DNA of 61,395 nt, counting the filler, from Globobulimina sp. (lineage: Eukaryota): assembly GCA_003354225.1 (NCBI GenBank). It is 16 parts of 16 records of this genome, joined end to end, with 100 filler letters (N's around TTAATTAATTAA, not from the genome) between each part and the next. Parts side by side here need not be neighbours in the genome. Positions count along the whole stretch, not along the records: positions 34,624 to 38,363 come from PIVH01002168.1; 15 more parts are not named here. One strand, given 5' to 3'. The position numbers and the translations under genes are program-made. Shown piece after piece: positions 3,753-58,211 of this stretch (the stretch's first letter is position 1; each line of letters starts with the position of its first letter). The notes below the pieces were generated by a model, which did not search any database, had not been told where the DNA came from, and worked only from the letters and a program-made list of their open reading frames with translations.

Positions 3753-3852
3753 NNNNNNNNNNNNNNNNNNNNNNNNNNNNNNNNNNNNNNNNNNNNTTAA
3801 TTAATTAANNNNNNNNNNNNNNNNNNNNNNNNNNNNNNNNNNNNNNNNNNNN
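3753..3852. other. Artificial contig spacer (N44-TTAATTAATTAA-N44, stops in all six frames)
   Basis: The same 100-nt spacer recurs at 7602, 11450, 15298, 19145, 22990, 26835, 30680, 34524, 38364, 42204, 46044, 49882, 53720 and 57558. The contigs between are about 3.74-3.75 kb in decreasing length order. Confidence 0.98.
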
Positions 3853-7400: not shown

Positions 7401-7701
7401 AATCTTTCCTTCTCCGCCTTCTCCTTCCACTGCTGCTCAGTATGATTCAAAGATTGACCCGAAGAACGTGCTGATGAATTTGTACTATGCTTTGAAACTT
7501 GTCGCGTTCGGCTCACGTCTTATCTCCTTTTTTGTTGTTGAATTGCATTTCTTTCACTCTCAGCTTTATTGTTTAGTCTAAAAGTGTATTCTGGATTCCT
7601 TNNNNNNNNNNNNNNNNNNNNNNNNNNNNNNNNNNNNNNNNNNNNTTAATTAATTAANNNNNNNNNNNNNNNNNNNNNNNNNNNNNNNNNNNNNNNNNNN
7701 N

Positions 7702-11937: not shown

Positions 11938-14137
11938 TCAATTGAAATTAAACATATTTTGTAATCTTGTAATCAGAGCCGGAGTGGATCTGTCATCGTT
12001 ACTCGCAAGTCTTCTTCTTCTTGCATTACAATTCTGTTTGACGTTATTTAATCGCCTCCACATAACAGCACAATTCCTGGCAGTCACATCATTCACAGTT
12101 TCTTCAACTGCTCCACATTTGCTTTCATTTTCACCTTCCCAGGAAACTATATACGTTGTGTTTGATGAACAGTTATATGAATTGATTTGTGCCCACATTG
12201 ATCCTACCGAAGCTAATGTGTTTTGCACAGCATTATATTCCTTACTTCGATCCTGTAACACTGCCCATAATTCACTCACTTTTCTACTTTTGAATGCAGC
12301 AACATTACATGCTTCAATTTTACCCGTCTCAATATTATACAATGTAAACTCACCTTGTTGAAATTGACCAAAACTCGCATTGTTTATTGTCGTCGTATTA
12401 TCCAAAGCATCCAAGCACTCTGATCTGAATAAAATATTCCCGCGCTTTCTATTTGGCGCAGTAACCTGCGGATTGTACCAATTGTCGAAAAATGTTTGAT
12501 TTGGAGTGGAATATGAATTTTGGTCGTCATGGCCCACGTATGTGTTTCTTGGAGGCAAAGCAGATATTTGTGATGCAATGGGACATGATTCATCCACAGA
12601 ATAAGAACCATTCACAATAAGCTTCCATGGTTTCTTTATTATCATGGAAGCGAAAAAAGTTTTTTCTGGATAGTCCACAGAAAAATCATCACCACATAAT
12701 CTCATGGAAATTAACTCCGTTCGTTTTTCATAGTTCCCATTGCACAAATCATCACATGCACATTTTATATCATCCCATATCTGCAAACTAGAATGATCAG
12801 AATCAGAATAATTATGTGATATATTTGCGATGTCTGTAAAAATATTATAGCAATCACTGATATGTACCATTTCATTATAATCACAATAACTGGTGGGAGT
12901 TTGTAAATTGTTTAATACGTTTTCAATATAGCCACCAATTATAAATGTTGGTGTTTTCAATCCGCCTTCATTCATCGATGATTTTCTTCCTCTTAAAGGT
13001 AGCGCACTGCCAAGATCTCCGGGACCATTGTCAGAGGTAATAACTATAACAGTATCGTCATACAATCCCATTGCTTTTGTTTGATTTATAATCTCTTCAA
13101 TCTTTTCTTGAGCATACAAGACAGCTCTACAAAGTAGCTGGGTATCAGGCGACAATGTGGAGATATTACAAATATCATAATCATAAACAAAGTACGGACT
13201 CAAAGGAGGTGGTTCAATCAACCGTCTGTGCGGAGTATGTACACTGTAATGGATATAAAACGGATTTAAAGCAGTTTGTCTACCAATAAAATCTACGATA
13301 TTTTGTGTATACAACGACTCGATATACTCTGTATTTTCAAAGTAAATTGGCACCGCATCTCCGTTATGGATACCCCAGGTATCTGACGAAGAAAACACAT
13401 TTTCGTTTTATAATGCAAGCGAAACAGAGTGTAGTTTATAATGGATAGTAATTAACAAACCATGTACTGCAAGTTTGCCATCTGGGAATAATGCGTTTTG
13501 TGTGTCAATTATTTTGCTATTACTCGTCGGATATTGGTCATGGTATGAGGTGAATTTTACCTTTGATCCACGAGCATTATAACTTGGCGTCACATACGAA
13601 TAAACGCCTTCGTCGAAACCTTTTGCACCGGGCAACGTATCACTGTATTTATAGCCAATATGCCATTTGCCTGCGATGAATGTATTATATCCATCATTTT
13701 GTAATAACTGGGTATAAAAAGTCAGATTACGTGCAACATGGCGATGTGAATGCGATACAGTCACACTGTTTATACCGGTAAGCCATGAATATTTGCCTGT
13801 AAATAATGATGACCGGGATGGAGAACATACAGCCTCACAATAATGTGAATTTAATTTAATCGCTTTATCAGATACCAATTGATCCAAAACTACGTAGAAT
13901 ATATACGTAGAATTATTATTATCGGCAATATATAATAGTGGCAAAACAAAAGAAAAAACCGCTAATAGTAAACAAACCAGGTGTTGGGTATGTTCCTCCA
14001 TTAAATCCGACGTCTGTAAAACCTAAATCATCAAACCACAAGAATATTATGTTTGGTTTCGATTCAATACTGGCTCCTTTTTGTATGAATACCGTTGTCA
14101 ATAGTAGAGCCTCACAGATAGTGGACATCGAAAGCAT
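11938..14137 (-). CDS. Secreted arylsulfatase (ARSB-like, 3 exons)
   Basis: Signal peptide, KPNIIFLWFDDLG, the formylglycine motif CSPSRSSLFTG, GKWHIG, SDNG and PLRGRK..EGG. Introns 13890-13977 and 13383-13460 restore the frame. Confidence 0.9.
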
Positions 14138-22989: not shown

Positions 22990-23152
22990 NNNNNNNNNNN
23001 NNNNNNNNNNNNNNNNNNNNNNNNNNNNNNNNNTTAATTAATTAANNNNNNNNNNNNNNNNNNNNNNNNNNNNNNNNNNNNNNNNNNNNTATTCGGAGAA
23101 GTTAATGATTTCTCTGCGGAAAACATCTTGCGAAGAAATAAACTCTCCGTGC

Positions 23153-26100
23153 ATGGCGTCCGCAATAACCAACTATAAAAATGTATTCAACGAACCAGCG
23201 ACCCTCGAGAACCTCTCCCACATTTTCGACATTTTAAACGAGAAAAACGATGATCGCATAGTCTTCCGTGATTTCTGCAAACATATCAAACACGTCGGCC
23301 TCAACACTATATTATCGCAAAAAGAGCAACGCAGTGTCTACGATCACATCGCTTCCGCGGTCGAAAAGAACCGCTCCATCACCAAAGAGTCGTGGACCAA
23401 AGGCATAGACATCGCGCACCAAGAACCCAACACCAAATTGCTATATCAACATATCTTAGCCGGCCGTCAGTACAACGCGCAAGCCGGCCGCGTGGAAATC
23501 GAAATGGACGAAATCAAGTCCACGCTGCAAGAGACCAAAGCACCGTGGCTGTATCGCATCGAATGTATGGAGTCACTGTGCCGGCAAATCACACACAAAA
23601 AGATGCGTAAAGATAAGCTCCATTCCATCTTCAAGCCGTACCTCATCGCCTTGACCAAACAAGCTCGCGACCGCCGTTCGAATGTCAGCAGAGTGTCTTG
23701 CGAGGTGCTCGCCAAAATAATCTTGCGTTGGAAGCACGAGTTCTTAAAGTATTCCTATACTACGATCGAGTACATCTACGAGTTGGTGCGGCAAAAGATA
23801 CAAATCGTACACGAGTCTGGCTACGCAGTGTTGGAGATATTGCTGAAAAACTGCGGCGACCACAAAGAGTATAAAATAATGGACATCTTAGGCCGCGCAG
23901 CCACGCAGTCCAAGTTTGTCAATCTGCAGGAAGACTGCTTCGATTTGCTGCATTTGTATTTGGTGCAACAGAGTGCGAAGTTGAAGAAGAAGAGCGAGTT
24001 TTGGAGCAAGTTGTTGCAGTATACGCAGAGTGGCGTGAACGATACGGCCGATGTCAGGAACAGTGCCTTGGCGCTGTTGGCCGAGATCGAGAGGGAACGG
24101 CCGCAAATGGCGGCGAAGGTGGTGCAGAAAATGGGCGTGCATTTGAAGAAACGGTACGAGAGTCAGTATCAAAATAACGGTGGCGATGACGAGAAGAGTC
24201 AGTTTAGGTTCAAGCCGAATGAAATCAATACGTCTCGGAGTCAGAGTTTGAGGAACCAGAAAAGCGTCAGTTTCAGCCCAAAGAGTTTCAGTCAGCCGAC
24301 CAGTCCGAAAATGCCAATGAGCCCCAAAAGTCCAAGGACTCCCAAAGGTCGTCGAAAAAGTAAGTCGTCGGTCAATTTTCCAGTTACGTGCGATATTTTG
24401 TTTTAGTCCTTGCACTCAGTGGTAGTCAGACCGCAGTCAGACACTTTTCACTGACAAACATGGCAAAGTCCTGTGGTCAACGCACTATGTACACATACAT
24501 AGAAACCGCCAAAAGGCGAATTCCTGAATGCATTTGGTCAGAGATTGAAGGAAAATGACATATTGTTTGCATTTCAATTTATAGACTTTAAAAATGATAG
24601 GAAAATCACATTGGATGAGTTTGAAATTTGTTGTAAACGCTTAAATGTCACAGATAAAAAAAACGCCGCTGCGTTGTTTAATATTTTAGATGAAGAAAAA
24701 ACGCAATCCGTCAATATAGAAACGTTTAAATCCAATATAAACAAACGTGATTCGGCATTAATGGATTTCTGGTATAAGGTATTAAGTGGCACACATTTGC
24801 AGCAATCGCCACTGTCCAATGACATAGATTTTGAAAATGCAAATAAATTATTGTTAAACAACAAAAATTCTCCAGACATCCGCTTAAATGCAATGTTTTC
24901 CATAACCCGCAAGATTTGTGGCTTAAAGAAATATGACAACCAACCAAAGTTTGAGGCGCAATTTAAAAAATCTTTAGGTCCGCTATTGAATCAATTAAAA
25001 GACCGAAATAACGCCATAATCCGACAAGTTTGCATCTGTTTTAGTAAAATATTTGTGGCTAAAATGGCAATGTATAAAACGTTTGCCATCCGGACGTTGG
25101 AAAATCTATCAGAATGTATAAAATTGCAAGATCAGAAAGTACATTTATCCGCTACCCAATGTGCGGCTGCGTTGATCAAATATTGTCCGGATCGCAATGC
25201 CTGTCCCTTAATGAAGGTGATTTGCAGCAATTGCTGTGCTAAAAACTTTACTTTATTACGGAGCGCGTCGTTTGAGTTTATCAATTATTATTTATTTGTG
25301 ATGCTCAAAGAGTTTGAAGACAAAAAGAAGATATTCTGGGACTATTTGGACAAGGCATTGGCGTCGGGTTTGAATGACAGCGATACCGGTGTCAGGTGTG
25401 TAAATTCGCAAAATATTGCCATGGGAACGGTATTTGTATGCATATGAAACATATATATAAAGGGATTTGGCATATATCGCATTGGTGAAAGTGGAGATGT
25501 TAAAGAAGGACGTCGCGGAAAAATATATCAATGGCTTGAAAAAATCGAGGAAGGAGAAATTTAAATCATTTAAAAAGAGTGAATTGAAGCGAGTGCGCAG
25601 TGGTGATATATACAAAGAGGTGGTGCCGACCTCTCCGAAGTCTCCAAAATCGCCCAAAGCGCAAAGGAAAATGAGCAGAAAGTTGAGTCGCAAAATGAGT
25701 CGGAAAGCGAGTAAGGCGGCGATGGCTGCGGCGGCGAGTGGCACTGACAGCGGTTATAAAATTAATAAGCGACCGAAATTTGATATATCTGACGATGAAA
25801 AAAGAGAGGAAGAACTGCGAAGACAACGGCAAAAACGAAAGGAGGACCGATTGAAGAGAGAGAAAGCGGATCGGTTTGAAAAATTAAAGTTAATGCAAGA
25901 ACAGGAGAGATTGGAGCAGGCAGAAAATGAAAAAATGGAGAAGGAAAAATTGGAAAAGGAAAGGGTGGAACAGGAAAAATTGGAAAATGAAAAAATGGAG
26001 AAATTGAAGCAGGAAAAAGAAGAAAAAGAAAGGTTGGAAAAAGAGAAGGAAAAAATGGAGGAATTAAAGAAGGAAAAAGAAGAAAAGGAAAAAATGGAGA

Positions 26101-26833: not shown

Positions 26834-27067
26834 CNNNNNNNNNNNNNNNNNNNNNNNNNNNNNNNNNNNNNNNNNNNNTTAATTAATTAANNNNNNNNNN
26901 NNNNNNNNNNNNNNNNNNNNNNNNNNNNNNNNNNAAATAGATTTGAAAAAAATCGTCAGATTTCATAAAAATTCTCAAAATTACGTCACATTCCATTCAT
27001 CATGTATTGCGATGACAATCTATGTAGGACAAAAAAAAATGAATTTCATGATTCATGACAAAAAAAA

Positions 27068-30000
27068 ATGAATTTCAACCAAATAATGGATAAAAATACT
27101 GCATTGCAGCAATTCTTTGGATCAATTTGTGGACCGATGACTGATCCGACCACCAACCACAAATTACACGACATTAATAACTTTGATTCCGAATTAAATG
27201 ACTATGTCCCCAATGACCTGCAATTCATCCCCAATAAACAGAAAAATGACACTGATAACACGGCAACTTCCATCCCACCTCCCCTTGAAACGCTTGATAA
27301 TGATACCTTTGCCCATAATGATGAAGAAACAGACGATGCCTTCACGCCGCACTTTGATCCCAACTATCTCCCCCCAACCCAACCAGTACTGAATGTCATA
27401 ATAGATATCCAACACCAAACGCCTGGATATTTCCCGACCCGCAGTGACTTACAAGAGAACGAAGAGAAAAGAGAGTGTGAGCAAATACCGGATGTTCATG
27501 TAAGCAAATTCAAATCGATAGAACTTGCTATAAAACAGGCAAATCCAAACAGCGCCCCCGGATACGATGGGATCAAAACCATCCATCTCAAAACAAACTC
27601 GCATCACATTAATAAAATACTCTGCACACTCTTTAATGTCTGGAATGACACTTACTGCATCCCCTACTACTTCCGATTGGGTTCGATCATCCCGATCCTC
27701 AAAACTCCAAATGGCTGCACTCCGAATCAATACCGGCCCATAACTCTCCTGCCAATTATATTTAAAGCATATGAAAGATTGGTACTGTGGGAGATGTGCA
27801 TTCAGCATAAGTTTCGAGCGAACCTACATATATTACAAGGAGGCAATCGATCGAGAAGAGGCGTCCCAGAACAGATAGGAGCCCTGAATCTGATTGCAGA
27901 GACTGCAAAAATGAGAGGAATTCCCCTTTACTGTGCGCTTCTTGACATACGTAAAGCTTTTGACACAGTCTGGAGAAAGGGGCTCCTATACAAACTACAC
28001 ACCGATTTTAATATTCCTATCCATATTTGCAAGATAATTAAAGCCATTTAAAATAATTCACACGCGGCAATACGTGACATACCCTTCATTTCAAATAAAT
28101 TCATCCTACATAATGGAGTGCTGCAAGGATCTGTTCTTTCCCCTGTATTGTATGCAGCATTCCTCAATGACATGATCTATGAGCTACAGGCGTCTGGAAA
28201 CGGTGCATTTTCGCCGAATAATGATGAAAAAATAGCGTGTATATTCTACGCTGATGACGTAATATTGACCGCAAATAAAATCTCGCATCTTAATAAATCA
28301 ATAAAAATATGTGAAAAGCACAGCATTCGATGGAATTATCAATTTAACAGCAAAAAATGTAAAACTATGATATATAATGATGATACAATTAATAATAACA
28401 ATATTGATACATATAATATAAATGATATAATACTAATAAACAATGAATACTATGAATCTGATGCCATACACAATAACAAGCCAGCTCCAATGATATTGAT
28501 CCAGAAACCAATAAAAAATCAAATAATGGCAATAAATGTCGATAATCAAATACAGACATATGACAAAACAGAGATTCCTACGAAGCACCTTGAGATGTTC
28601 ATGAATCACGTAGCATTTTATGGTGACATCACGAATAAACCCTTCCCGATTATGTGGATTAATATGCGATATGATCGTAACTACAGTCCGTCGGTGATGC
28701 ACCATAAATTGCGACTAAATAACAGCAGATTGCACTGCACGACTTTTATGCGCTACTTAGGTGCCATGTTAAGTAGTTACGACAGCGCCAATTTGGTCTC
28801 CACTGAGTACACTAACAAACACTTTTTGAAAAAACTTGATAACAAAGCGCGTGTTCTCACGTCCCTGGATTTTAATCATGATTATATATCCCTGGACGAC
28901 AAGATACGTATCCTGAAGACATTTTATTTAGTCTATACGGAAATTTTTGCGCAGGTTCTAGATTGTGAGAAAATAAATTTGGCCGAAGCCAATCAAAAAC
29001 AACTTGATGTAATCCGAAAGCAAACAAATATCCAGAAATTCGTTCCTGAACAACTTTACTTATGGGCTGGAATACCAACACCGTTTGAACGGTGGGTGTC
29101 ATTGAAACTGACCTTTTATTGGAAACTATTGCATATTCCCAATGTGTCATTAATGCATAAATGGGCCCATTTACCCCACATAAATCACCATAAACTCTAC
29201 AAACAATATAAGACCCTGAAAAGGGAATGGCTGCCAAAAATAAGCCAAGTGTTGCAAGATGAGGTCCGAATGACTGATCCATTTGACACAATACTGGAAC
29301 CACATGAACTTAGACCGATAATAATAAAAACACAACATCAAAACATCCTAAATAACTTGAATAATTATCATCCTCTGAAAGTGCTACAACATGTAACCAG
29401 TGACTATAGACCGATGAACATATATGAAAAAAACGAATTGGCTGAATACGTAAAAGAGCCAATGATACAGACGTACCGTGCATTATTTTATAACTTCAAT
29501 CAATATGATCCGTATTGCAAGCTTTGCAGGAAAACCATAAACAAACCATTGGAACTGCACCTTGCTGTCCTATGTCCTGTCTTAGATACTTTAAGAAAGG
29601 ATTATTGGTACCATGCTAGTTTCACTTTTGCCAGAAATGGCTCCAAAATCAACAAAATCCATAACCAAATATATATGCAACGATTGATTGAGCTGTGCCG
29701 TAATGTTAACATTAATAGATCGCAATTCTGGAGAATTCTCTGTGGTGCCAATATTTACAAAGTTGACACCAATGAGTTTGTATACATGCACAAATTGATA
29801 AACATAAACGTTGATAAATACACATTATATCGGAACTTGATCTCACAAACTCATCGTTGGATATCTGATATCTTCAGAATACACCGCAACGAGATAAGTA
29901 TCAAACGCATGAGAAATAAACATACCACCATGCCTTGCAAAATGCCATTATATCATACCCGTAGTAGAAATATAACTGAATGGCATAATAACAAAAATAG

Positions 30001-30592
30001 ACTACACCCGAATGACCTCATAATAGCTACGGACTCCTCACACGATCCATGCACTAACACCACCGGAATTGGAATAATTATAAAAGATCATAACAAAATA
30101 CACTGCTATGCACAACCCATAGGTGCGCAGACAAATCATTATGGCGAACTGTATGCGATACTAAAATCTGACTTTTTAATAAATAGATGTAAAATCAACA
30201 CTGATAATCGCCGAAAAGTAATATTCACCGATTCCTTATATAATTTCATCCCATTAATTACCACCCCCCGAAGAATAGATAAATTAGCCCATTCTAATTT
30301 ATTCAGAAACACGCAAAAATACTTGAAAAAGAGTGAGAGCATTCTGTGGAAAGTTAAATCACATACCAAACCAATACAGCAGCCTTTTAATAATGTAGCA
30401 GATAAGCTGGCAGAGATTGGGAGGATCCATCCAAATAACTCCAGCTATCTTACTACCAACTACAATTCCATACAATATGCCAGATATAAATCCTTCACGT
30501 TCACACATGGTGTCTCGTTTGATACCATAAACAACCTCGCCGGGATGTTCAAGCAATCGGTGAGTATGGAGCCAGACTTACTCCCTGGCTGA
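27068..30592 (+). mobile_element. Non-LTR retrotransposon ORF2 (RT, CCHC zinc finger, RNase H), 5' truncated, with one in-frame stop
   Basis: APGYDGI, YRPITLL, LDIRKAFDTV, GVLQGSVLSP, YADD, RYLG and CKLC..HLAVLC. RNase H motifs TDSS, TNHYGEL, FTDS, KVKSH and NNVAD. The two ORFs share one frame, split by TAA at 28049-28051. Confidence 0.92.
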
Positions 30593-34623: not shown

Positions 34624-35104
34624 TTCGAATGTCTCCAAACTTGTAAACTATGGTTTGTCCGTCATTTTTTTTAAATAATACGCGAGGCCTAATTTCTCTT
34701 CTTTGAAATTTTATCTTTGTCGCTGGTATTATTTTATCTTCGAATTCATCGTAATTGCAATGCCTACACCTTTCATTGTAGTGATAGGAGTCCATATATT
34801 TCAGACATTTTGCACATTCCTTTATTCTCATTCTTATATAACCAGCCGTACTTAATACAAAACATTTATTGCTTTGTGTCTTAAACACTGTCCCAGTGCC
34901 ACATATTGTTACTTCATAGCATTTTTCAACGTATTTATAATCTGCCTCTAACTGTCCAATACAAGCAATGATATCTTCTTTATTGTATCTTGATTCTGTG
35001 ATTGGTTGTCTATGATCTCCATCATTATGCACAATCGATTGTTTTATACAATTTGATTCTGTTTTTTTTTTTGCATTATCTAGCTCAACGACATTTCGCA
35101 CCAA
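34624..35104 (-). CDS. Trypsin-like (S1) domain fragment with CxxC insert
   Basis: CIGQL...GTGTVF...FVLSTAGY resembles the S1 N-terminal barrel. Truncated by the contig end. Confidence 0.5.
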
Positions 35105-35413
35105 AAATCGGGTATAATACTACACACCGTCATAATAGTCTGCTTCTTTCTTTTCAATACTGTTTTTTCGTACTAACGACATGCAGCGAAAATGATTTTA
35201 GATGAAAACCAGCTTAAATAAATCTTTTTTTCCACAGGATTAAAAAGTCCGAACAATGAATTTGTAATATTCAGATTCAAACCAAAAATCAACACAGACG
35301 CTCGCTCGGCTCACTTTTGTAATGATGACAATTAAATGATTACAATATATATGCTTACATAACAAGACAAAAACAAGCACAAAAACAAGACAAAAATCTA
35401 TTAAATTAAAGGG

Positions 35414-38363
35414 TCAGTAATGCTGTGCATCGGTAACCCATAATTGGGCATTATGGTAAACAAAGGAGCCATCAACAAACATTTTCTCCAATTCTTGAAA
35501 TCTAAGCGGAGATATTCGTAATGGATGGCCACGTTTTAACCATTTGTCTTCCTCGCCATGTTGGTCCAAATACAGTGAATGCCACAGACATCTCCGTTTA
35601 TGCGCCACCAATAAAATGGAGCCCATTTTCAAATGCACGACGCCGCCCAATCCGCCACCACATGACATCATATGATCATAGGTTTCGAAGGTATGCTGCT
35701 TGGAATTCTTACAGCAATCCCCACGGAAACATATCAAACGATGACAGGTCAGACACAAACCAGCCTCACTCGGCACCCTTTGACATCGATTACATTTCTT
35801 ATATAAAATGGTTGTATATAATGTTTGATACAAAGACGGCAATCGTTTCAACATAAATGGTAACGGACTCATTGGCGCACGAAATATGCCCAATAATTCT
35901 GGAGGAATAAATTTGTCCCAATACGGATTCTCACAAAATAATAACTGCGATTGTTGCAAACCTGATAATCGACACACATTCACAATATGTTTGTCGCTGT
36001 ATGGAGTCCCTAAATGTGTCGCATTCCATTTCTTATTCAATATATTAAATATTGATGGCAACAATAAATATCTGCTCCAGGTGCTATATTCAAATATGAT
36101 ACGCAATCTGCTCAATATCAATCCATCCGAATTCACCACCTTTCCTGAAGGCGTTACATTCATTGTAGACAGTCCATCTTTTTTAGAGCCTATCAATGAT
36201 AACATATCCGCTGAAAACTCCATTTTCTGCACAAAATCACTCGTCTTATACACCAATTTAAATATCTATATATTCATAATTCGATCGGTGAAATACACAT
36301 AATTATTCACAAAAATAGAACAATTGTTTCGTTATTTAATGGATCAAATATTAAGCAAACATATCAGCGATAAAGATGCTGTACAGACATTGTTATCACA
36401 CATCAAATTATCAAAATGTTGCTGCTGCACACAAACAAATGGGAAAACAAACTGTGTCGTTTGTGGCTCAGTATACTGCAACGAATGTTATTTGAATCAA
36501 AAAAATATTTCAAAATGTTCCATTTGTAACGAAGATGTGTGTAATGGCAAAAACAAGGAATATAATTGTTATTTAATCTGCAATCAATGCAATAAAAACG
36601 TATGTTTCCTGTGCTCGCATTTTTGTTTAATGTGTGGCGACGCGGAATGTTACAAATGTACCCCGTCATATCACCTTTGCAGGAAAAACAAACATGATTT
36701 ACATCACGAATTATGTCAATGTTATGTGTGCAAAACCATTGGATATTGTTCTCAATGTCTATCAAAATGCAAAAGCTGCGCACAGCCAATCTGCGACGAT
36801 TGTTGCTATTTTCATACCTGCCTTGGAGCCACATTTAGGAACATTTATTGTCAAAATTGCAAAGAAAAAGAATGTATAAAATGCAAACTGTGCCAGAAAA
36901 TAATCTAAAAAAACTTAACAATGTGCTTCATGATCGCCAAATGCCGCAACAGCGGCAAACAAAACCATTGTATCGAATTAAGAAACCATTTAGATTCACT
37001 TAATATTTTTTCTTCGCACCATTTTCCATCTTCGCCGCTGGGAATGTTTGCATTTGACTGATTTTTGCGTAACTCCGATCGCAAATATTTTTCATAACTT
37101 TTATGGCTCCGAATGTGCGCAGTGTGTCTATCAAACCTCTTTATATTCACATCGTGTATAAATCGTATAAAATGTGCTTTGCTTAAATGTTTTATGAATC
37201 GTAAACAGTGCGGGTTTGCATCGTTAAACGTCGCCCTGCTCCAACGGATTAAGAAGTAAATAATGCGGCCCATATACGTTAACAAAATGGTGAGACATAA
37301 TTGGTCAAATTTCTCCGCGACCACCGGCAAATACTCCCAATCCATACACAAAACACGCGTTGCTATTTCCAGCGGAGAAGTATCAAAAACCCAGCCGGTC
37401 GCGAAAAAACCGCGAATGATTCGATCTAATTGCACTGAATCTGCACACTTTGATTCTTTCTCATTATCGGCATGGTCATCGTGATTGTGATTAGATAAAA
37501 ATATAATAACTCTCGATAATAAATATAACGTTTCTAATCTGCTGTCATTTAAAAAGGATTTCTGCATTTTATACACATGCTCAGTTACTAATTTATAATC
37601 ATTTTCGTCCTCCACATTGCCATCGATAATGCCATGTAATGGCCGATATGAATCATACCTGCACAGAATTGAATTTATCAAATGTTTATAGCAAATAAAT
37701 AAATGTATATACCGTAAGGAGTTCTCCAGCAAACGTATGTTGAATAACAATGTGAAGCGCAGCCATTCAATGGATTTGTGCGAATTAGGTATCATTTGCA
37801 TGCCGGGCGAATATCGCGTTATATTTGAGATTAACTGGTCGATGGAATCGCGAATCAGAGCCGGCATCTCTGCAATTCTCTGTTTTTTGTGTGCGCCAAC
37901 ATACATATTCGCCAATTCGTGCATCGTTGGCAAACTCGAGGAAGTCACCAAATTATTTTTATTTTTTATATTGCCCAATACCTGGGACGAACGCTCATTT
38001 TCTGGCTGTTCTGTTTTTTTTATATTCGCGTCGGGGATACACAACGAAATGGGCAACAACGCATTGCCTAATCTCCTGCACAAAGGGCAGAAAAATTCGC
38101 GTTGTAAGTCCAATAAATGCAAATGTGGATGCATTTGCTGTGCGTTTTGTTGCGACATTTGATGCGCTAGAAATCTTTGATAACATTCAATGTGCAAACA
38201 ATGGCCGCACGACAACATTTGTACACCCCCATCCCCTTCGAAATTGATGGTACGATGTCGGTCCACATCGATATCCAATGAATACGCCGTATGGTAATAA
38301 TCTCTCGTCGTACATCGCATCGTTTTCTTCTCCACGTCCCCCTCACTGCCATTATCAACTTCC
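35414..38363 (-). CDS. UBR1/UBR2/PRT6-type N-recognin E3 ligase, C-terminal part (RING plus UBR C-terminal domain)
   Basis: SCGHCLHIEC, EFFCPLCRRLGNALLP, CLPLLR, LCLTC..C, SLYLDQHGEED..LKRG.PL. Introns 37659-37712 (in frame) and 36266-36919. Confidence 0.9.
36339..36908 (+). CDS. Cys-rich multi-CxxC zinc-binding protein nested antisense in the UBR intron
   Basis: About 190-aa intronless ORF with about 37 Cys, mostly in CxxC pairs, lying wholly within intron 36266-36919. Confidence 0.7.
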   Translation: MDQILSKHISDKDAVQTLLSHIKLSKCCCCTQTNGKTNCVVCGSVYCNECYLNQKNISKCSICNEDVCNGKNKEYNCYLICNQCNKNVCFLCSHFCLMCGDAECYKCTPSYHLCRKNKHDLHHELCQCYVCKTIGYCSQCLSKCKSCAQPICDDCCYFHTCLGATFRNIYCQNCKEKECIKCKLCQKII

Positions 38364-42303: not shown

Positions 42304-45300
42304 GTTCATTGGTAAATAGATCAAATAACATCAAAAATGGGACGGGCGGATTAGAGAAATATAATGACATCGATAACATTAATTTATTCCGAACAAATGT
42401 TGTGGATAAAATCCCCAATGAAATATTGGATGATTATGTAAATTTAATCGCAGATTATTATAAAATGATTGTAACAACAAAAGACCATCGAATTATTGAA
42501 CTGTATGAAAAATTATTAAACTTAGCACCTAAAATTATTTTTAACCAAAATAATCGCGGAAATGGTAAGAGCGACGATAATAAAAAAAATGCGACATTTC
42601 ATATGCAAAAAAAACTGAAAGCTTTTCGCGAATTGGATTATGAGCAAATAATTAAACATATCGCTTACACTGAGTCCGAAATGGAAAAAGTTAATAATTC
42701 CATTGAAAAAACTAAAAATAAAATCAAATCGATGACAAAAAAAGAAATTGAGATCAAAGTCGATAAATTAAGGCGTAAAAGAATAATAAAATACGCAAAA
42801 TTGAACGATTTAAGCAAAGCCTACAAGCAAACCGAGTATAATTTGGCAATGGAGATAACTGAGCAAAAAATCAAAAAGTGGCATAGTAAATTTATTAAAA
42901 TGAAAAAGCACAAAAAAAAGTTGGATTTTATCAACGGTACATATAAATTTATAAAAGTTGACAGTGAGAAATTATTATTAATCATAAATAAAATGAAAAA
43001 AGGCAGCACCGGTGGCCCGGACCAACAGTCAGCTTTTCATCACCAACAATTAGCAAATTATAACAATGAAAAATATATTAAATGGTTTGGCAAATATGTT
43101 GAGATGATATGTAATAACAAATTAAGCGAATTTCAAATATTAAATGTTATGACATCAAACGGTATACCTATTCCAAAGAAGGACCCCTTGGATCTTAGGC
43201 CCTTATTATTAAATAAAATAATTGTGAGAATTGCAAATACGTATTCTGTATTAACTGAAATTGAACAAATTGCCATAGTACAGTTAGCAAATCAGTATGG
43301 AATAAATAAAAAAAACGCACTTAGCATTATTGTCCATTCAATGGACAAATTTATAGAATATGCAGTCAAGAAAAATAATGATTATTTTGACAAAAAACGT
43401 ACAAATTTATTTTACGGCGTAGACGACGAGAAATATAATAATCAAATAAATGAAATGAATTCGGAGTTATACCAAAATAAAAAAGAAAAAATAAAAAAGA
43501 TATTACAAAGAAGTGAGTTTACGTTCGACGACGACAATTTTATAAATGACGAGATTTTAGATATGATTTTTTGGGAAAACGAAGATTTGGACAATATACA
43601 CGTTATAATGAAAGATGACTTAGCAAATTTTTTTAACCGCATACTACGTAAACCGTCCCTGGAAAATCTAAACCGCAGAGTTCCTAATTTATATCCTATT
43701 GCTTACGTAAATTATTCGATGCCCACAAAAGTTGTGTTTAATGGAAGCATACATGAACAGGAAGACGGTTTACATCAAGGAAATACCATTACGAGTGTCA
43801 TTGTGATAGTAAATGAGGCGGAAATTAATGAAATTGCTGTTGAATTACTGCGAAACAGCGAATTATTGAACAAGTTAGTTATTGAACTGAATTACATTGA
43901 CGATGCAAATAAAGGAGATGTTTTACGTAAATGTATATTAAACCATTTAATTAAAAAGAAAATTGGCCTTAAATTTGGCAATAAATTCAATAATAAGAAG
44001 ACAGAAATAATTCTAACACACAGCCAATCAATATCTCAAACCAATCAATATCTCACAAATAATAAATTTAAGATTTTGGAGAATGCAAATTTTGAGATGT
44101 TGGGAATTGAGCGCGGCAAAGGTAGATATAACAAAATGATGAAGAAAAAACTTGAAAAAATGAAAATTAAAATAGATATTATTAATAATATTGATAATAA
44201 TTGGTATAAATACAAATTATTGAATTCATGTGAAAAATTTGAAAATTTTAATTATTTTATATCATGTGGACGACGAAGGTAAATTTATAATTACTTCAGA
44301 TAATGATTGGTTGGTTAACGCCGACGAAGTGCATGAAAAGATTATAAAATCATCAATTAATATACCAATAAATGACGAAACCAAACAATTATTTTCGATT
44401 GGCAGAGGTTTTGGAGGTTTAGGCATTCGCAGTTTAACTAATTTGATAGCGCCCGCCTACATTTCTGGAATTCATAAAATCGTTATTTTGTTATGGAACG
44501 AGTTAAATATTGAATTATTACACAAAACAGGTGGCAAAATCAGAAAAAATGTGCAAAACGCAGTTAAGTGGAACAATTTGAATACGACAAAGAAATTTAA
44601 TATTGAGATCAAAGATGTTTTTTACGATTTGGATGAATTAAATATGTTTTCGTATGAATATGAAGACGAAACTATTGATTGTAATATAGAATTATTCAAA
44701 AATATGTTAAATAAAGCGAATCTAAACACAATTGAAGAGAATGAAAATACATTGAATGATAATGAGAGTATAATGGATGTTGATGAAAATTATGAGAATA
44801 ATGCAAGTTATGCACAAAATAATAAATTAAAAATGCGCTGCCTGACATACGGCATAGAAAATAGAATTTATCACAGTATCTTCGACAAAGCAAGCACTTC
44901 GCAGAGAATTATTATGAACGCGCGCAGATCAGCTAAATGCATGGCGTTTTTAAATAATATAATTGGAATTGATTGGTTGAGTGAGATGGAAATGAACGAC
45001 CAAGATTGGAATCTAATAATTAGGATATTATACGGCATATCATTGATAGATAAAAGAAAGAAAATTATATGTAACCAATGCCACGAACATGTACACGAAG
45101 AGAATGTATTAGAGCATGCTAATAAATGTAGATTTGGATCAAAAGCACATCATTATAGGCACGACAGCATCGCATATTATTTATATAAATTATTTGACAC
45201 AGAATTTGGTAATACATCCTAAGTAACGAGAAACCGGATATTTGGATTAATAATAGTATAGAATTTGAAAAAAATAAAATTAGTAAATTGTTATTGGACG

Positions 45301-45940
45301 TCGTGGTATCGGATATATTTAGTAATGAGAATAAGAGGAACATTGAGAATGAAAATATTGGACATTTTATGGCTGGAAAAATTGGTGAAAGAAATAAATT
45401 GGCAAATTATGAAAATAAATTTGAAGCTGACTTATTAAATGGATATAAATTTATACCTTTGGCATTTGAGAGCTTTGGAGGAATTAGTAAGAAAGTTAAG
45501 AAATTAATAAATTCAGCGTTATTATATAAAGCAGGCAGATTAAAACAGGATATTATGATATTAAAAAACAATTTTTACGCAAAATTCGCAATATTTATGA
45601 AGAAAAATATGATTGAATCATTAAGAAATCATTTTACAATTCAATAAATTCAACATAAGCAAGATATTAAATAATTATTTTTATTAAAGTAATTGCTCCG
45701 GATATTAACTTAATTCGTTTTTGATTTTTATGATTTAGATGTTTTGTTTGTGTTTATGTTAGCAACCAATCCAATAGTTGTTTTTATGTGTTCTTTTTGT
45801 GTGATTGGATTGCTTTTTTTATGTAATTATGACGAATTATTGTTTCGTTGTATTTACAAAAGTTTTATGAGGTATAGGTGGTGCCACTTATTTATTTTAA
45901 TTTGAGCACAAGATTTGGCTCGTTAAAGAAAAAAAAAAAA
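42304..45940 (+). mobile_element. CRE-clade-like non-LTR retrotransposon (RT, CCHC, restriction-like endonuclease) with two frameshifts, 3' UTR and poly(A)
   Basis: GGPD, IPK..LRPL, D..NFFN, GLHQG, YIDD, LG and GGLGIR. CNQC..H..KC..RHD, KPDI, LDV, K..Y and FIPLAFESFGG. A12 run at 45929-45940. Confidence 0.85.
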
Positions 45941-57557: not shown

Positions 57558-58211
57558 NNNNNNNNNNNNNNNNNNNNNNNNNNNNNNNNNNNNNNNNNNN
57601 NTTAATTAATTAANNNNNNNNNNNNNNNNNNNNNNNNNNNNNNNNNNNNNNNNNNNNACCCTTTTTTTGTTAAAATGTGAAGTGTATTTAAATTTTTTCC
57701 TTTAACTGTCTTTGATTTTGTTTGCGTTTACAATGTGATTTGAACATTCGCTCCTTTGGCCATGACTGCATCGCTTAGTAAAAGAACAGTTATCGTCGAA
57801 GGTGTTGATGATTTTTTTGATGCTCACACATAAGTTGACATAAAATCAATCCATCAATTACAAAATTTATTACAATTCACACTTTTTTTTGTATGTGTTG
57901 TTTTTTCTTTGAATTTTTGTGTGTTAATTGGTAAATAAATCAATTTTAATTCAATTTGGAAACACCTTTTATTTGCTACTTTCGACCCCCTACGTACTTA
58001 CGAGAGCCCCCCCCTTTTTTTTCTTTTTTCTATGTTTATTCTATTTTTTATAATTTGTCATGTTTAATTATAGTATTTTCTTGATGTTTTGAAGAAGCAA
58101 ATTATTTAGTTAACACCTACATGCTACAGATATATACATAGGAAAAAGTTATTAAAAATACAAAAATGTCAATCATCAACAGTTGCGTTTGTGTCATCAA
58201 GTATTGTGTGA

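Follow-up and report, generated by a model that had tools for sequence, protein, structure and literature searches.

A predicted cysteine-rich gene nested antisense in the last intron of a UBR-type ligase gene

The locus described here lies in a window of 61,395 nucleotides (nt), the whole stretch of DNA that was analysed, taken from a eukaryotic assembly (Globobulimina sp.) with a GC content of 0.35. It comprises the 3' part of a gene for a UBR-type E3 ligase on the minus strand and, on the opposite strand within the last intron of that gene, an intronless open reading frame (ORF) for a cysteine-rich protein of 189 amino acids (aa). The assembly is very fragmented, and the window joins 16 separate contigs end to end, longest first, from 3752 down to 3738 nt. 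The contigs are parted by 15 spacers, each consisting of N44 + TTAATTAATTAA + N44 (3753-3852, 7602-7701 and so on to 57558-57657). Because the window is made of joined contigs, genes count as neighbours only within one piece, and a gene that touches a spacer is cut by a contig end; the true neighbourhood of the nested gene is the 3.74-kb piece at 34624-38363 only.

On this piece, the host gene is read on the minus strand through an exon with a RING-like stretch (37713..38363, cut at the contig end at 38363), a second intron of 54 nt bounded by GT..AG (37659..37712), an exon that ends in ...LRHLAIMKHI (36920..37658), the intron that contains the nested gene (36266..36919, 654 nt, GTTAAG...ATAG), and a last exon of 283 codons plus stop that encodes the C-terminal PRT6_C/UBR domain (35414..36265). 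The 54-nt intron is defined by contigs of RNA-like sequencing runs, and the exon upstream of the 654-nt intron by these contigs, by a spliced protein model and by tblastn with P0014, a full-length relative of 2155 aa. The last exon matches the Pfam family PF18995 (PRT6_C) at 4.3e-36, with 125 bits against a cut-off of 26.2, and residues 1600-1730 of human UBR2 at 4.3e-13, and it is 77-83% identical to the relatives P0008, P0010, P0012 and P0014. The RING-like stretch aligns by phmmer to the RING region of human UBR2 (residues 1162-1230, 3.6e-7) and of UBR1 (1.1e-6), while its Pfam zf-RING_2 score of 15.9 bits is under the cut-off of 27.3. By Pfam, P0014 carries PRT6_C and a UBR1-like winged-helix domain.

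Based on these matches, the host is predicted with confidence to be the orthologue of a UBR1/2-like (PRT6-type) E3 ligase of about 2150 aa, and its naming as UBR is right by homology. Specifically, it resembles the N-recognins UBR1, UBR2 and PRT6 in having a RING-like stretch and a PRT6_C domain that are collinear with residues 1162-1230 and 1600-1730 of human UBR2. It differs in that a UBR box is not seen, for a window that lacks the N-terminal two thirds of the protein owing to the contig end. The UBR box (zf-UBR) was not found in P0014 by Pfam at E<=0.01, and the 'UBR' ligase of P0014's lineage may do without a recognisable one. The tblastn alignment of P0014 starts at its residue 1385. Its N-terminal 1384 residues are unmatched in the window, since the contig stops at 38363 and only the last ~746 host codons are present. 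A truncated UBR gene was considered and dropped, since the window consists of joined contigs and the missing part lies beyond that contig end. As a separate observation on the host family, P0008 extends 62 residues beyond the stop position that is common to the window protein, P0009, P0010 and P0014.

The 654-nt intron is delimited to the nucleotide. Read on the minus strand, the exon before the intron finishes with CTT GCC ATT ATG AAG CAC ATT (...LAIMKHI) at 36920 and is followed by GTTAAG at 36919-36914, while the intron closes with ATAG at 36269-36266 and the next exon opens with ATA TTT AAA TTG (IFKLVYKTSD) from 36265. Four public sequencing runs (X1, X5, X6 and X7) were compared with 35300-38363, their sorting into DNA-like and RNA-like kinds being a guess. 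X1 is DNA-like, has a word depth of 5-10, covers the whole of 35300-38363 and is possibly the source data of the assembly itself, whereas X5, X6 and X7 are RNA-like and come from three studies under three organism labels. Contigs of these three of the four runs join 36265 directly to 36920 and thereby skip exactly 654 nt, with ends CT..AC on the plus strand that correspond to GT..AG on the minus strand. The same runs also skip 54 nt at a joint 37654>37709, which with a +4 shift becomes 37659-37712 (GTATAT...TGCAG). As two precise GT..AG skips occur in the same contigs, these look like spliced mRNA. The 54-nt intron keeps the frame and contains no stop, and the genomic ORF accordingly reads 18 extra residues that are absent from P0014.

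Protein relatives agree with this structure. P0014 is continuous over the 654-nt junction (...LRHLAIMKHIIFTLIY...), and P0008 opens with MKHIIFKL, that is, across it. A 746-aa model spliced from the exons 38362-37713, 36920-37658 and 35414-36265 is identical to P0014 residues 1385-2155 in 548 of 779 alignment columns, with both junctions free of gaps. The intron is covered continuously by two X1 pieces, 36179-36730 and 36709-37174, which span its two boundaries. The two halves of the host thus belong to one mRNA, and the 654-nt segment is the last host intron, accurately removed. This bears out the original prediction, made from the sequence alone, of an intron at 36919-36266 (654 nt, GTTAAG...ATAG), for which the sequence, the skips in X5, X6 and X7 and the continuity of P0014 all speak. 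Its further statement that the other introns measure 50-135 nt holds for the one intron that was checked (54 nt). With the 654-nt intron left in, the host protein would end in ...MKHIVKFF and lose the PRT6_C domain.

The three RNA-like runs differ in their closeness to the window: X5 is about 99% identical, with 15 differences in one contig of 1356 nt, and for X6 and X7 the figure is mostly 90-99%. X6 shares its organism label with X1, but most X6 contigs reach only 90-99% identity to the window, which points to a strain, an allele or a sister species that has diverged under the same label.

Inside the intron, the coding sequence (CDS) of the nested gene occupies 36339..36908 on the plus strand, with 189 codons and a TAA stop at 36906-36908. 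The frame is open from 36303, and the first ATG is at 36339. The CDS lies wholly inside the one host intron, with 73 nt before the ATG and 11 nt (36909-36919) between the stop and the exon boundary. Its product, P0001, contains 37 cysteines (19.6%) and 15 CxxC motifs, overlapping ones counted, and is composed of an N-terminal helical segment, three modules of about eight cysteines and a cysteine-rich tail. The expected intronless opposite-strand ORF of about 190 aa, with about 37 cysteines and a stop about 11 nt from the splice donor, is therefore present in each of these particulars. Given the base composition of the window, in which about 7.1% of random codons are stops, the chance of an open frame of 201 codons is 3.4e-7, and about 0.003 such frames are expected by chance over the six frames of the window.

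Further evidence comes from conservation. An exhaustive HMMER search of 1.84 billion representative proteins returned five relatives at E<=1e-3 (6.5e-31, 3.7e-30, 8.8e-8, 6.0e-7 and 5.7e-4), of 167-226 aa and 30-48% identity, all of them unnamed and derived from ENA or Logan contigs. The alignment of the six sequences has 25 invariant columns, 22 of which are cysteine, and all 22 are present in P0001. Between 24 and 33 of the 37 cysteines of P0001 are matched by cysteine in each relative, and identity elsewhere is 13-35%; the distant member P0006 has lost several cysteine pairs. The N- and C-termini coincide across the alignment, which supports the start codon at 36339. Because the cysteines are invariant and other positions are little conserved, selection appears to act on a metal- or disulfide-bonding scaffold. 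Judged by this comparison of sequences, the ORF is a real protein-coding gene under protein-level constraint. The central claim of the original prediction, a complete opposite-strand gene inside one spliced UBR intron, is thereby corroborated by the position of the CDS, the splice skips and the cysteine-conserved family.

Other searches added little to the family. A word-index protein search gave no match with P0001, and with profile A1 it gave only the family members P0005 and P0006; the best score in the ESM Atlas, 0.82, was under the trust level. Scans with profile A2 found no relative in metagenome contigs (212 pattern matches, none confirmed) or in viral contigs (87 pattern matches, none confirmed), and a scan of metagenome contigs for the host exon returned three loci with 13-29 residues matched and neither gene present. 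As predicted from these records, the family is small, unnamed, fast-evolving and lineage-restricted.

The pattern of cysteines offers a framework for the likely role of the protein. A spacing of roughly C-x2-C-x4/5-C-x2-C-x3-C-x2-C-x4-C-x2-C is repeated three times, and P0001 has no hydrophobic N-terminus or membrane segment, which makes an intracellular, zinc-binding role likelier. P0001 is thus a putative array of cross-brace-like zinc modules outside any named family. Its pattern suggests an intracellular protein-binding scaffold built from cross-brace-type zinc-binding modules of about eight cysteines each. With RING, B-box, FYVE and PHD domains it has in common the paired CxxC motifs 4-9 residues apart and the approximately eight cysteines per module, and its weak matches are all to this class; it differs in that the ligands are nearly all cysteine, the spacers are short, and at least three modules stand head to tail within 189 aa.

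The matches themselves are faint. Pfam contains no family for P0001 at E<=1, and profile matches in the PDB at E 0.014-1 are to RING, CXXC and B-box domains, with the BRE1 RING, the MLL CXXC and the MID1 B-box at 0.014-0.016. A weak ANCHR-like B-box match occurs in 2 of the 6 family members (best E 0.043). The AlphaFold model of P0001 has a mean predicted local distance difference test (pLDDT) score of 55.6, with only residues ~20-80 near 80. With this low-confidence model, Foldseek returned nothing from the PDB at E<=1e-3, and the best VIA match, to RIM and FYVE fingers, reached Z 4.6.

Two other readings of the protein were rejected. Metallothioneins are small, contain about 30% cysteine and have no aromatic residues. 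A metallothionein is ruled out for P0001 by its 189 aa, 19.6% cysteine, 10 tyrosines, 4 phenylalanines and 8 histidines, and by the missing Pfam match. A derivation of P0001 from the cysteine-rich parts of its own host was likewise discarded, the best BLASTP match to P0014 having an E-value of 11.

Records from relatives provide insights into the age of the arrangement. The family member P0007 and the host-exon homologue P0010 (259 aa) each derive from an ENA contig of 8669 nt, and the family member P0006 and the host-exon homologue P0012 (279 aa, a cluster neighbour of P0010) each derive from one of 8370 nt. With six family records and eight host-exon records, two exact matches in size would be very improbable by chance. 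The entries P0010 and P0012 are short proteins in their own right, each starting a little way into the last exon, which is what would be expected if a stop-containing intron precedes the exon in those contigs too. P0007 and P0006 are 42% and 30% identical to P0001, and the paired host-exon proteins P0010 and P0012 are 83% (over the aligned part) and 78% identical to the last host exon of the window. These data suggest that the nesting is old and goes back to a common ancestor with at least two relatives.

The original prediction had instead seen a retrocopy or mobile cargo that landed in an intron of normal size. A recent insertion of this kind into a formerly ~84-nt intron of this lineage would explain why the 654-nt intron minus the 570-nt ORF leaves 84 nt, a length near that of the verified 54-nt intron. 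It would also fit the presence of reverse-transcriptase ORFs in the same assembly (27059-30592), and P0014 and P0008 are continuous over the junction, so that versions with an empty intron or with none may exist. The lack of introns in the ORF would suit a retrocopy, but it tells little, because most ORFs of the assembly are long and uninterrupted. However, the locus bears none of the usual traces of an arrival. There is no 3' poly(A) tract, the only A run after the ORF being an A7 that includes the stop codon, and neither the ORF nor the intron is flanked by a target-site duplication or by terminal repeats; the repeats there are of 9-30 nt and scattered, with inverted pairs of 9-29 nt. The intron contains no other ORF with a family match, such as a transposase or integrase. 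Moreover, the composition of the nested gene is native, with a GC content of 0.344 versus 0.361 in reference genes, a GC content at third codon positions (GC3) of 0.354 versus a mean of 0.351, and a synonymous-codon score of 0.079 (range of the reference -0.12 to 0.23); all three values fall among those of the reference ORFs (n=16, same assembly). A search for paralogues had been proposed, and within the window, to which it was confined, there is no second copy (best non-self tblastn E 0.043). Lastly, two diverged relatives lie on contigs of the same sizes as host-exon records, and the gap between 42%/30% and 83%/78% identity fits long co-residence. A recent landing is thus not upheld and appears distinctly improbable.

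The explanation that we favour, at a probability of roughly 0.72, is an ordinary, evolutionarily old host/nested pair, in which a gene without introns, encoding a soluble protein of 189 aa, sits antisense in the last intron of a UBR-type ligase gene. The nested gene would have its own promoter, in the 73 nt before the ATG or in the last exon of the host, and the 3' end of its mRNA would run antisense across the host 5' splice site and exon. It would be expressed at other times than the host or at much lower levels, the nesting would have been inherited from an ancestor common to at least two relatives, and the intron may have been kept because a gene sits in it.

Several points weigh against this explanation. 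The pairing of P0007 with P0010 and of P0006 with P0012 is indirect, being drawn from equal contig sizes and not from gene position or strand, and 4 of the 6 family records have no listed host-exon record on a contig of the same size (P0002 4425, P0003 1016, P0004 11066 and P0005 4254 nt). P0014 and P0008 could come from relatives that have no intron here, instead of from RNA. Structural support for the nested protein is weak, with no significant fold or Pfam match and zinc binding deduced from the cysteine pattern alone. Furthermore, no contig of X5, X6 or X7 falls within 36330-36844, though contigs of these runs join across the intron.

This last gap in coverage is also what a silent or decaying relic would leave, that is, a former gene whose transcription was lost and whose frame is open by chance or because the loss of function was recent. 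No contig of the three RNA-like runs lies on the ORF despite a word depth of about 90-140 for the host in X5, and the distant P0006 is without several cysteine pairs. Run contigs show presence only, however, and neither the absence nor the strand of rare or stage-specific RNA can be read from them; X6 and X7 also diverge from the window by 5-10%. The gap fits separate expression of the two genes without proving it, and it is not proof of silence. In addition, a frame of 189 codons is intact although about 7% of codons drawn at random would be stops, all 22 family-invariant cysteines are kept, and start and stop coincide with those of the relatives, which makes a relic unlikely. An assembly artefact, with an unrelated gene placed between two UBR fragments by a chimeric join, would be in keeping with the very fragmented assembly (contigs of ~3.7 kb, X1 word depth of 5-10). 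Yet the insert is bounded exactly by GT and AG and skipped exactly by RNA-like contigs of three studies, and X1 contigs bridge both of its boundaries, although X1 may be the assembly's own data. A chimera would accordingly be a great surprise.

A more specific possibility is that the nested gene is no passenger but, locked into the last intron of the UBR ligase gene, codes for a lineage-specific partner or regulator of that ligase with multiple zinc fingers, and that its antisense transcription across the host 5' splice site switches the host between full-length and intron-retained forms. If so, the intron-retained host form would end in ...MKHIVKFF, without PRT6_C, the two genes would be expressed reciprocally, and the survival of the intron in an intron-poor genome would be explained. 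We regard this as doubtful. For the favoured old host/nested pair, an overlap of the transcripts would follow from the geometry that the original prediction had pointed out, as any 3' untranslated region of the nested gene longer than 11 nt runs antisense over the host donor site and exon; the two genes may then interfere with each other, as that prediction had also suggested. No canonical AATAAA or ATTAAA signal was seen by eye downstream of the stop (36909-37100), where the organism's own signal may differ.

Arrangements of this kind are long familiar from eukaryotes, and it is the protein family that is unnamed and narrow. As in the nested pairs of Drosophila and other animals, a short intronless gene lies wholly within a host intron, often on the opposite strand. 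Animal nested genes usually reside in long introns. The present pair differs in the very small size of its host intron: 570 of the 654 nt are taken up by the nested CDS, so that a nested transcript could not avoid an overlap with the host donor or exons. About 10% of Drosophila melanogaster genes are reported to lie in nested structures (PMC3814207), and 2mit, in the opposite orientation within an intron of tim2, is a reported example (PMC3786989). Nested Drosophila pairs tend towards divergent expression, which is attributed to transcriptional interference (PMC5174743). A second likeness is with the sense-antisense pairs of Giardia, also an intron-poor unicellular eukaryote, in which a transcribed antisense gene overlaps a host intron; the overlap is put forward there as the reason for keeping the intron (PMC6545626). 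The Giardia pairs differ from the present one in that they are overlaps with verified antisense transcripts, whereas here the transcript is a predicted one and the whole antisense CDS lies in the intron. The literature, supplements aside, was searched for a gene nested in a UBR intron, and no report related by its title was found.

These findings have consequences for annotation, as an ab initio gene caller could miss the 189-aa gene or split the UBR gene in two. Indeed, the UBR gene seems to be split in the records of relatives, with the last exon filed as a separate protein of 259-279 aa. They also add a new cysteine-scaffold family, for which the search of 1.84 billion representative proteins detected no more than five relatives, and a compact system in which to ask whether antisense nesting limits the loss of an intron or disturbs the splicing of the host.

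Some further features accompany the locus. Downstream of the host, on the same piece, lies a gene at 34625-35119 (minus strand) that has a few CxxC pairs (...CAKCLKYM...CRHC...), no Pfam match and an end cut by the contig; a relationship to P0001 was ruled out by tblastn within the window. The other pieces encode SH2, serpin, RhoGEF and CFAP47 domains and reverse-transcriptase ORFs. The latter belong to a retroelement at 27059-30592 (plus strand) that resembles those without long terminal repeats and has RVT_1 matches; the long ORFs at 42306-45647 (plus strand), without family match, may be another element. An ORF with an HNH_3 endonuclease domain (2.1e-6) stands at the end of the last contig (61032-61394, minus strand), and a CLASP_N-like ORF at 23090-24406 (plus strand) has a GC3 of 0.64 versus 0.22-0.53 in the other reference ORFs. 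Single in-frame TAA codons interrupt a sulfatase ORF at 13408-13410 (minus strand), with profile positions 30-133 and 135-274 on either side, and a reverse-transcriptase ORF at 28049-28051 (plus strand). These interruptions could reflect a pseudogene, a sequencing error at low coverage or a tiny intron; for the nested gene, TAA is a true stop.

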